Notes under the pieces: generated by a model
Databases searched by the model: none
Told to the model about the DNA's origin: nothing
The model's input: only the letters and a program-made list of their open reading frames with translations
Made by a program: the position numbers and the translations under genes
Assembly: GCF_003991155.1 (NCBI RefSeq)
Contig: NZ_CP031293.1
From: Escherichia coli
GTDB taxonomy: Bacteria > Pseudomonadota > Gammaproteobacteria > Enterobacterales > Enterobacteriaceae
Length of the DNA: 64,000 bases
Direction: 5' to 3' (one strand)
In this document: positions 37,522 to 37,556 of the stretch, piece after piece
Numbering within the stretch: the stretch's first letter is position 1
Layout of the letters: every line of letters starts with the position of its first letter

Positions 37522-37556
37522 TTAAATTTACTTAATATTGAATTAAGTAAATTTAA
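37522..37556. promoter_or_regulatory. Perfect 15-bp-arm palindrome in the yadN upstream region (candidate regulator binding site)
   Basis: TTAAATTTACTTAAT-attga-ATTAAGTAAATTTAA read directly; about 175 bp upstream of the yadN start, inside a 370-bp AT-rich intergenic region. Confidence 0.35.

Follow-up and report, generated by a model that had tools for sequence, protein, structure and literature searches.

Analysis of a 64,000-nucleotide stretch of Escherichia coli DNA (contig NZ_CP031293.1; the whole stretch is referred to as the window) reveals a perfect palindrome in the spacer that separates folK from yadN, the first gene of the Yad chaperone-usher fimbrial operon. The element occupies positions 37522–37556, reads TTAAATTTACTTAAT-attga-ATTAAGTAAATTTAA and is built from two 15-bp arms that are exact reverse complements of each other, giving a 35-bp perfect palindrome. 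It is best read as a dyad-symmetric cis-regulatory site for a two-fold-symmetric protein, lying beside a weak yadN promoter, because it is single-copy and exceptional, its arms are conserved, their spacing is fixed while the centre varies, and it stands at the edge of the minimal fragment controlled by H-NS. We give this reading a probability of roughly 45%. The element is previously uncharacterised; the kinds of object to which it may be related, operator-like dyads and perfected quasipalindromes, are known ones.

In the mechanism that we propose, the palindrome of the window would be this lineage's perfected version of a conserved, single-copy dyad cis element placed immediately 5' to a yadN promoter that is weak and non-canonical, within an AT-rich spacer silenced by H-NS. 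The element would act as the docking site of a two-fold-symmetric DNA-binding protein, either a dimeric regulator or an H-NS/anti-H-NS complex, and whether the site is occupied would help to decide between silencing and expression of the Yad operon. Its arms would not evolve independently: a mismatch in one could be resolved by copying the other through template switching at the quasipalindrome, and such arm-to-arm copying would explain why perfect arms are found in several lineages, including that of the window. The palindrome, its uniqueness and position, the conservation and fixed spacing of its arms, the substitutions that keep the dyad and the spread of its alleles are results of the analysis; protein binding, the place of the promoter and template switching are inferred.

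A single-copy palindrome in the folK–yadN spacer

Between the folK stop codon and the palindrome lie 160 nt, and another 175 nt separate the palindrome from the yadN ATG. No perfect inverted repeat of the window is longer, the runner-up having arms of 12 bp. Dinucleotide-preserving shuffles of the 370-bp spacer (26% GC) gave arms of at least 15 bp in 0 of 5000 cases, the maximum of 14 bp being reached 3 times, and such arms are expected analytically 8e-5 times per spacer, which corresponds to ~0.1 occurrences in 500 kb of DNA with the same AT content. Shuffles and expectation thus agree with the initial annotation, which had described a perfect 35-bp dyad with 15-bp arms exceeding chance despite the AT-richness of the region, and they confirm that the palindrome is real, lies far beyond chance and is no artefact of composition. 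Symmetry reaches further, to 18-bp arms interrupted by a single C:T mismatch, and the predicted fold adds TGAAC (37517–21) and GTTCA (37560–64) beyond a 3-nt bulge. The element and its extensions are made up as follows.

37522–37536: left arm, TTAAATTTACTTAAT; between-family conservation 0.73, against 0.44 in the adjacent flank
37537–37541: central spacer or loop, ATTGA; conservation 0.37
37542–37556: right arm, ATTAAGTAAATTTAA; conservation 0.63, against 0.31 in the adjacent flank
37519–37559: extended dyad with 18-bp arms; C:T mismatch at pair 37521:37557, which is T:A or G:C in other alleles
37517–37564: largest predicted hairpin; RNA -15.7 kcal/mol (z -5.4), DNA -13.6 kcal/mol (z -8.1)

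A blastn search with the 41-bp element (E up to 10) against 5426 complete E. coli genomes shows one locus per genome, the 'two places' matched in each record being the two strands of the palindrome. This rules out a dispersed repeat, whether a repetitive extragenic palindromic (REP) element, a miniature inverted-repeat transposable element (MITE) or the end of an insertion sequence (IS), and it disposes of the possibility raised at the outset that the motif might be a common AT-rich repeat present at many unrelated sites, at least as far as a repeat family is concerned. A scan of 2.9 million viral contigs with a 9+9-bp core returned 42 matches, which are palindromes in AT-rich contigs; most have arms no longer than the required 9 bp, 0 share the outer arm sequence, and they are unrelated to the element. 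No Rfam covariance model matches at the element with E up to 1, and a known RNA family was rejected.

Conservation and paired evolution of the arms

The spacer is present in ~3100 of the 5426 genomes, only ~140 of which carry it with at least 99% identity to the window. The 41-mer is identical in 55 genomes and one base off in 108 (about 163 carrying the window's arms); in the three one-mismatch alleles that were read, the differing base is the first loop position, changed from A to C. The K-12 form, TTATTTTTACTTAAT...ATTAAGTAAATTTAA, occurs in ~1267 genomes and contains two adjacent mismatched pairs that leave perfect arms of 11 bp, and the O91/Shiga toxin-producing E. coli (STEC) form, TTATTTTTGCTTAAT...ATTAAGAAAATTTAA, occurs in ~1581 genomes and contains a third mismatched pair. 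Two divergent families have perfect arms of 13–17 bp at the same position, with different loops. The PEC422 type, found with a full spacer in 44 genomes, differs from the window at 35% of the spacer positions outside the element and reads AATTTAAATTTACTTAA-ccctgat-TTAAGTAAATTTAAATT, with 17-bp perfect arms and an unchanged distance to the ATG. The CFT073 family (561 genomes) lies beyond the reach of blastn from the window and reads TTAATTTTACTAA-ttttcatat-TTAGTAAAATTAA, its perfect arms reaching 16 bp in E2348/69, SCU-484 and 2009C-3133. Loops recorded among the alleles include ATTGA, CTTGA, TTTGA, CCCTGAT and TTTTCATAT, besides others.

Outgroups were taken from homologues of the YadN protein and their contigs, a YadN contig scan alone having given one locus. 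E. albertii and a relative at 55% identity carry another fimbrial gene at the site and no palindrome. One Logan contig of E. fergusonii (L013) begins exactly in the dyad loop, which may reflect an assembly break at the inverted repeat; a second contig (L014) begins ~30 bp downstream.

Between families the arms are conserved well above their surroundings, as judged by Fisher tests of the 28 arm positions against the rest of the spacer. The window and PEC422 differ at 0/28 arm positions, whereas 118/336 of the remaining spacer positions differ (35%; P about 1e-5). Differences amount to 5/28 in the arms for the window and CFT073 (45% in the rest of the spacer; P 0.004), for PEC422 and CFT073 (43%; P 0.007) and for the window and E. 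fergusonii (44%; P 0.005). Mean between-family conservation, which is 0.56 over the whole spacer, follows the layout of the dyad, with 0.73 and 0.63 in the arms, 0.37 in the loop and 0.44 and 0.31 in the immediate flanks. Thirteen alleles align without gaps over 59 bp around the element, while indels are common elsewhere in the spacer, so the distance between the half-sites is held. The positions kept in both arms define the half-site TTAnnTTTACTnAA, present as an inverted pair 7 bp apart (TTAnnTTTACTnAA-N7-TTnAGTAAAnnTAA); operators of dimeric transcription factors have two such inverted half-sites at fixed spacing. Among orthologous promoters the half-site is kept in the window, PEC422 and CFT073 families and in the comparison with E. 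fergusonii, and is degraded in K-12, O91 and the loci L012, L025 and L076. The C:G pair of ACT/AGT is nearly invariant (12/13 alleles), which argues for something more specific than H-NS, the one factor with a demonstrated action on this DNA.

The arms also change together. In the 59-bp alignment of the 13 alleles, three pairs are altered on both sides and still complementary. At columns 17 and 43 the window and PEC422 have A:T, the CFT073 family has T:A, and K-12, O91, E. fergusonii, L012 and L076 have T:T; columns 24 and 36 form T:A or A:T; columns 12 and 48, which correspond to the mismatched pair 37521:37557 of the window, form T:A or G:C in other alleles, with a G:A intermediate in CFT073 itself. 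Overall, 84.6% of the cells are paired compared with 79.5% in shuffles (a value reached by 1/500), six pairs showing changes on both sides, and the covariation score is 0.177 compared with 0.117 in shuffles (reached by 2/500); with slid partners it does not exceed 0.083. Since T:T at columns 17 and 43 is common to E. fergusonii, K-12, O91, L012 and L076, it is probably ancestral, and different lineages would then have resolved this mismatch in opposite directions. Columns 21 and 39 of the O91/STEC allele (window positions 37530 and 37548) present a separate case, in which both members of a pair have changed from A:T to the non-complementary G:A, an unexplained coincidence or possibly an effect of selection against the dyad.

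Relatives with imperfect versions, together with lineage-specific changes that raise arm complementarity (columns 17:43 and 12:48), are the marks of a quasipalindrome corrected by template switching. In E. coli, quasipalindromes are documented to become more perfect by this process (PMC7202029), which is also proposed to keep inverted repeats perfect in proteobacteria (PMC5941160). The dyad-preserving changes and the opposite resolution of one mismatch would be most simply explained as arm-to-arm correction by template switching, and the locus is a clean case, found in nature, of a DNA palindrome whose arms evolve in concert and by compensation.

The same observations lend themselves to a reading without any role for yad, in which a functionless quasipalindrome lies in a weakly constrained AT-rich spacer and is repeatedly perfected by template switching, its perfect arms being a mutational by-product. 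Besides the T:T pair settled in opposite directions, as A:T in the window and PEC422 and as T:A in the CFT073 alleles, this reading draws on the chain of states T:A, G:A and G:C at columns 12 and 48, on loops that vary freely, on the fact that most genomes tolerate imperfect versions at no visible cost, and on a mechanism that is both documented and proposed to maintain perfect inverted repeats. However, template switching equalises the arms within a lineage and does not prevent their divergence between lineages, whereas the arms of the window and PEC422 are identical despite 35% divergence elsewhere, arm conservation is significant in four between-family comparisons, and the spacing between the arms is fixed. 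We therefore regard a functionless element as unlikely, if still the strongest competitor of the cis-regulatory reading. Should it be correct, the palindrome would be one more quasipalindrome perfected by template switching.

Promoter context and possible functions

A candidate promoter that adjoins the right arm can be read from the sequence.

37558–37585, + strand: candidate weak sigma-70 promoter; -35 TTGTTC at 37558–63, 16-bp spacer, -10 CACAAT at 37580–85

With 7/12 matches it falls below the scan threshold; the layout TTGC.. / CA(C/A)AAT recurs in PEC422 and CFT073, making TTGTTC/CACAAT the best conserved candidate, and the centre of the dyad would then be near -53. No consensus-like sigma-70 promoter is present on the + strand of the window, K-12, PEC422 and CFT073 spacers, where shuffles give about 3, and the PEC422 and CFT073 spacers have none on either strand against ~3 expected. 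The lack of a consensus-like + strand promoter in four alleles fits a promoter that depends on bound factors.

Other motifs of the spacer may bear on its transcription. TGCACAAT (37578–37585; conservation 0.79) and CCTAATGA (37592–37599) are among its most conserved blocks and are probably core promoter or another binding site. The best sigma-70-like match lies on the - strand at 37484–37457 (TTGATA, 16 bp, TATATT; 10/12), points towards folK, is also present in K-12 and could drive a divergent or antisense transcript. A direct repeat at 37609–37623, GTAAA-ttttg-GTAAC, lies ~110 bp upstream of the yadN ATG; the pattern GTAA(A/C/T)-N5-GTAA(A/C) recurs across most allele families, CFT073 and E. 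fergusonii among them, and is weaker (GTTAC/GTAAG) in L012, L025 and L076. This repeat resembles the CpxR/OmpR-family consensus GTAAA-N5-GTAAA, and a response regulator may act on the yad promoter through it.

Published work places the element within a regulated region. The folK/yadN spacer is an H-NS-bound 'promoter island' in K-12 (PMC3661553), and a lux fusion to the CFT073 yadN promoter shows ~95-fold repression by H-NS and induction by serum (PMC13245861). The same study reports that Yad fimbriae are serum-induced and contribute to bloodstream infection by extraintestinal pathogenic E. coli (ExPEC), states that Yad is not phase-variable and cites effects of ArcA, temperature and oxygen (PMC13245861). 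The forward primer of the fusion, CTTAATTTTTTAAAGTTAATTTTAC, begins 15 bp upstream of the CFT073 palindrome, and the ~200-bp fragment ends ~20 bp before the ATG; the functional fragment therefore holds the whole element at its 5' edge, where the dyad is the most conspicuous conserved feature. SlyA overproduction raises yadN 2.4-fold and BolA overproduction also raises it; the effect of LmiA is indirect, LmiA not binding the yadN promoter. In a pangenome study of expression quantitative trait loci (eQTL), natural cis variants upstream of yadN were validated as altering expression; its K-12-type and B1-type reporter constructs differ, among other positions, at a right-arm T-to-A change. The palindrome is not mentioned in the searchable literature.

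The proposal of the initial annotation that the palindrome is an operator of the fimbrial operon thus stands in part: the element lies in the yadN regulatory region, both arms bear a conservation footprint and their spacing is fixed, but the perfect form is a minority allele, no regulon accompanies it, no regulator gene is nearby and the changes at symmetric positions are compensatory. Several observations weigh against a cis-regulatory site more generally. Perfect 15-bp arms are the property of a minority allele, most E. coli having 2–3 mismatched pairs. The commonest alleles are degraded, the O91/B1 type losing the conserved A of TTTAC and the partner T of GTAAA, and all that L012, L025, L076 and E. 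fergusonii keep is a CTTAA-N7-TTAAG core, whose left half reads ATTAA in E. fergusonii. Within the cluster formed by the window, K-12 and O91 the arms vary at or above background (2–4/28, compared with 10% in the rest of the spacer); the arms being conserved between families and not within this cluster, the constraint must be lineage-dependent. No regulon is visible: beyond chance matches, the 15-mer half-site does not recur in the window; the blastn search, made with the 41-bp element and not with the half-site, places the dyad at one locus in each E. coli genome; and no dyad was found upstream of sfmA, elfA, yehD, yehE or yraH of the four other cryptic fimbrial operons of K-12 (sfm, elf, yeh and yra), so that a motif common to cryptic fimbrial promoters was not seen there. 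The yad cluster contains no regulator gene, and no protein is reported to bind the element in the literature searched. Comparison with the consensus sites of known regulators gave no convincing match, whether for SlyA (TTA-N6-TAA), ArcA, Lrp, IHF, Fis, CRP/FNR and Fur or for the NarL 7-2-7 arrangement, EvgA, TyrR, the ARG box and the H-NS 10-mer. Compensatory changes on both sides are more in keeping with pairing or template switching than with a protein that reads specific bases. Finally, the reporter fragments of the eQTL study begin inside the palindrome and still drive expression; the complete dyad is therefore dispensable for basal promoter activity on a plasmid.

Pairing itself might be what is maintained. 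As an RNA hairpin on a + strand transcript, the element could form the 3' end or a stabiliser of a pcnB-folK mRNA or belong to a yadN leader that is initiated upstream; as DNA, it could extrude, depending on supercoiling, into a cruciform that modulates the adjacent promoter. AT-rich perfect palindromes in an AT-rich context are the type most easily extruded. Compensatory changes keep the pairing, and where one side alone has changed, the result is in several cases a U:G pair on the + strand. The predicted fold of the window is strong in both RNA and DNA, with similar values for E2348/69 and PEC422, and stability ranks in the same order as arm perfection, from the window (RNA -15.7 kcal/mol, z -5.4) through K-12 (-12.4 kcal/mol, z -3.5) to O91 (-6.4 kcal/mol, z -0.9, not significant). 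A T-rich tail, TTTGTTC, follows the stem, and TTTAATTTGTT comes after the 11-bp stem of K-12. Against this, the O91/B1 type with its ~1581 genomes has no significant hairpin, nor have E. fergusonii, L012 and L025. The stem holds one G:C pair in 15, a terminator scan requiring at least 3 G:C pairs returned nothing here, and Rfam offers no match. The T-tail of the window and K-12 is not conserved in CFT073 and PEC422, the element lies 160 nt past the folK stop, and folK is retained in strains that lost the region through IS1. Both published reporter designs put the promoter downstream of, or at, the element, and structure alone leaves the conservation of arm sequence unexplained. A structural role consequently appears improbable, slightly more so than a functionless quasipalindrome. 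An intrinsic folK terminator in particular was rejected as the main reading, given the AT-only stem, the unconserved tail, the distance of 160 nt from the stop codon and the lack of the hairpin in the commonest allele.

A further reading, to which we attach only a slight probability, is that the dyad, as the operator of a factor or as a supercoiling-sensitive cruciform, lifts the silencing of Yad by H-NS when the cell meets host cues, for instance serum. The ExPEC-type CFT073 family and the lineage of the window have a perfect dyad, K-12-like and STEC-like strains a degraded one; if this reading were true, allelic state would explain lineage differences in Yad inducibility and virulence. H-NS silencing is the only known control of yad, and the dyad would provide a handle on a counter-silencing regulator. 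It comes in discrete natural allelic states, perfect or with 2 or 3 mismatched pairs.

Locus context and relation to known systems

The window carries a non-K-12 allele of the locus, in which pcnB, folK, the 370-bp spacer, yadN, a fimbrial chaperone gene and an usher gene follow one another; an identical RefSeq locus is annotated as folK, yadN, fimbrial chaperone and usher.

35467–36885: pcnB
36882–37361, + strand: folK, the gene upstream of the palindrome
37732–38316, + strand: yadN, major subunit, first gene of the Yad chaperone-usher fimbrial operon; ATG at 37732

Immediately past the folK stop lies a separate, AT-only hairpin at 37364–37392, TATTTATATT-acg-AATATAAATA, followed by TTTTCT. 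Its GAATATAAATA block is kept even in E. fergusonii and L012, its fold is weak (-4.3 kcal/mol, z -2), and it may be a 3'-end element of folK.

Downstream of folK, gene content varies. In PSJ-12 (L005) and 23CRST042 (L007), IS1 is found 39 bp and 133 bp after folK and the yad operon is mostly or wholly deleted, up to panB, showing that the operon is recurrently lost. E. albertii (L018 and L019) and L026 have another chaperone-usher operon downstream of folK, whose major subunit is 54–55% identical to YadN. Different fimbrial operons at one site indicate an old fimbrial 'slot' whose content has been replaced.

The IS1 insertions and deletions of some strains in this spacer, and the dyad symmetry itself, are all that speaks for a site-specific recombinase or transposase site (a phase-switch end, an integration site or an IS target), which had been put forward at first as the alternative to an operator. 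The palindrome is single-copy, with no second repeat that would bracket an invertible segment; there is no recombinase gene between folK and panB, all alleles show a single orientation, the IS1 junctions lie 39 and 133 bp after folK and not at the palindrome, and Yad is described as not phase-variable (PMC13245861). We reject this explanation, which we hold to be extremely improbable.

Comparison with known systems sets the dyad apart from each of them in part. As in the K-12 hairpins before yehD and yraH, which resemble Rho-independent terminators, a long inverted repeat is placed between an upstream gene and a fimbrial operon. The yehE–yehD spacer (L079) contains a 36-bp perfect palindrome, AAAGCCGAAATCATTTAT|ATAAATGATTTCGGCTTT, before yehD, and the agaI–yraH spacer (L080) an inverted repeat with 15-bp arms and one mismatch before yraH. 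However, these two inverted repeats contain G+C, look like terminators and abut the upstream stop, whereas the yad dyad is almost pure A/T, lies 160 nt past folK and adjoins the yadN promoter.

With H-NS nucleation sites the dyad shares AT-richness, TpA steps, an AAATTT tract and its location in an H-NS-bound region, the fragment that contains it being repressed about 95-fold, a resolution that is that of the region and not of the palindrome. Its match to the 10-bp H-NS motif is only partial. H-NS requires no G:C pair, whereas the C:G pair of the dyad is nearly invariant (12/13 alleles), and long dyad symmetry is not known to be a requirement of H-NS sites.

The dyad also bears a likeness to operators of dimeric transcription factors at fimbrial or H-NS-silenced promoters, for example those at which the MarR-family proteins SlyA and RovA counter H-NS. 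Inverted half-sites at fixed spacing, conservation of both arms with a free centre, and a position upstream of a weak, here a candidate, promoter within an AT-rich, H-NS-bound spacer are common to both, and yadN responds to SlyA overproduction (2.4-fold). Yet at 2 x 14–18 bp the yad dyad is far longer than the SlyA site TTA-N6-TAA, a pattern absent from it, and it is a single-copy candidate with no visible regulon and with compensatory evolution at symmetric positions.

The quasipalindrome hotspots of E. coli thyA and lacZ and the conserved perfect inverted repeats of proteobacteria likewise have imperfect relatives, lineage changes that raise complementarity and mismatches resolved in either direction. 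These cases are defined by the mutational process and not by a function, whereas the yad dyad is, in addition, conserved in its arms between lineages and located at a promoter.
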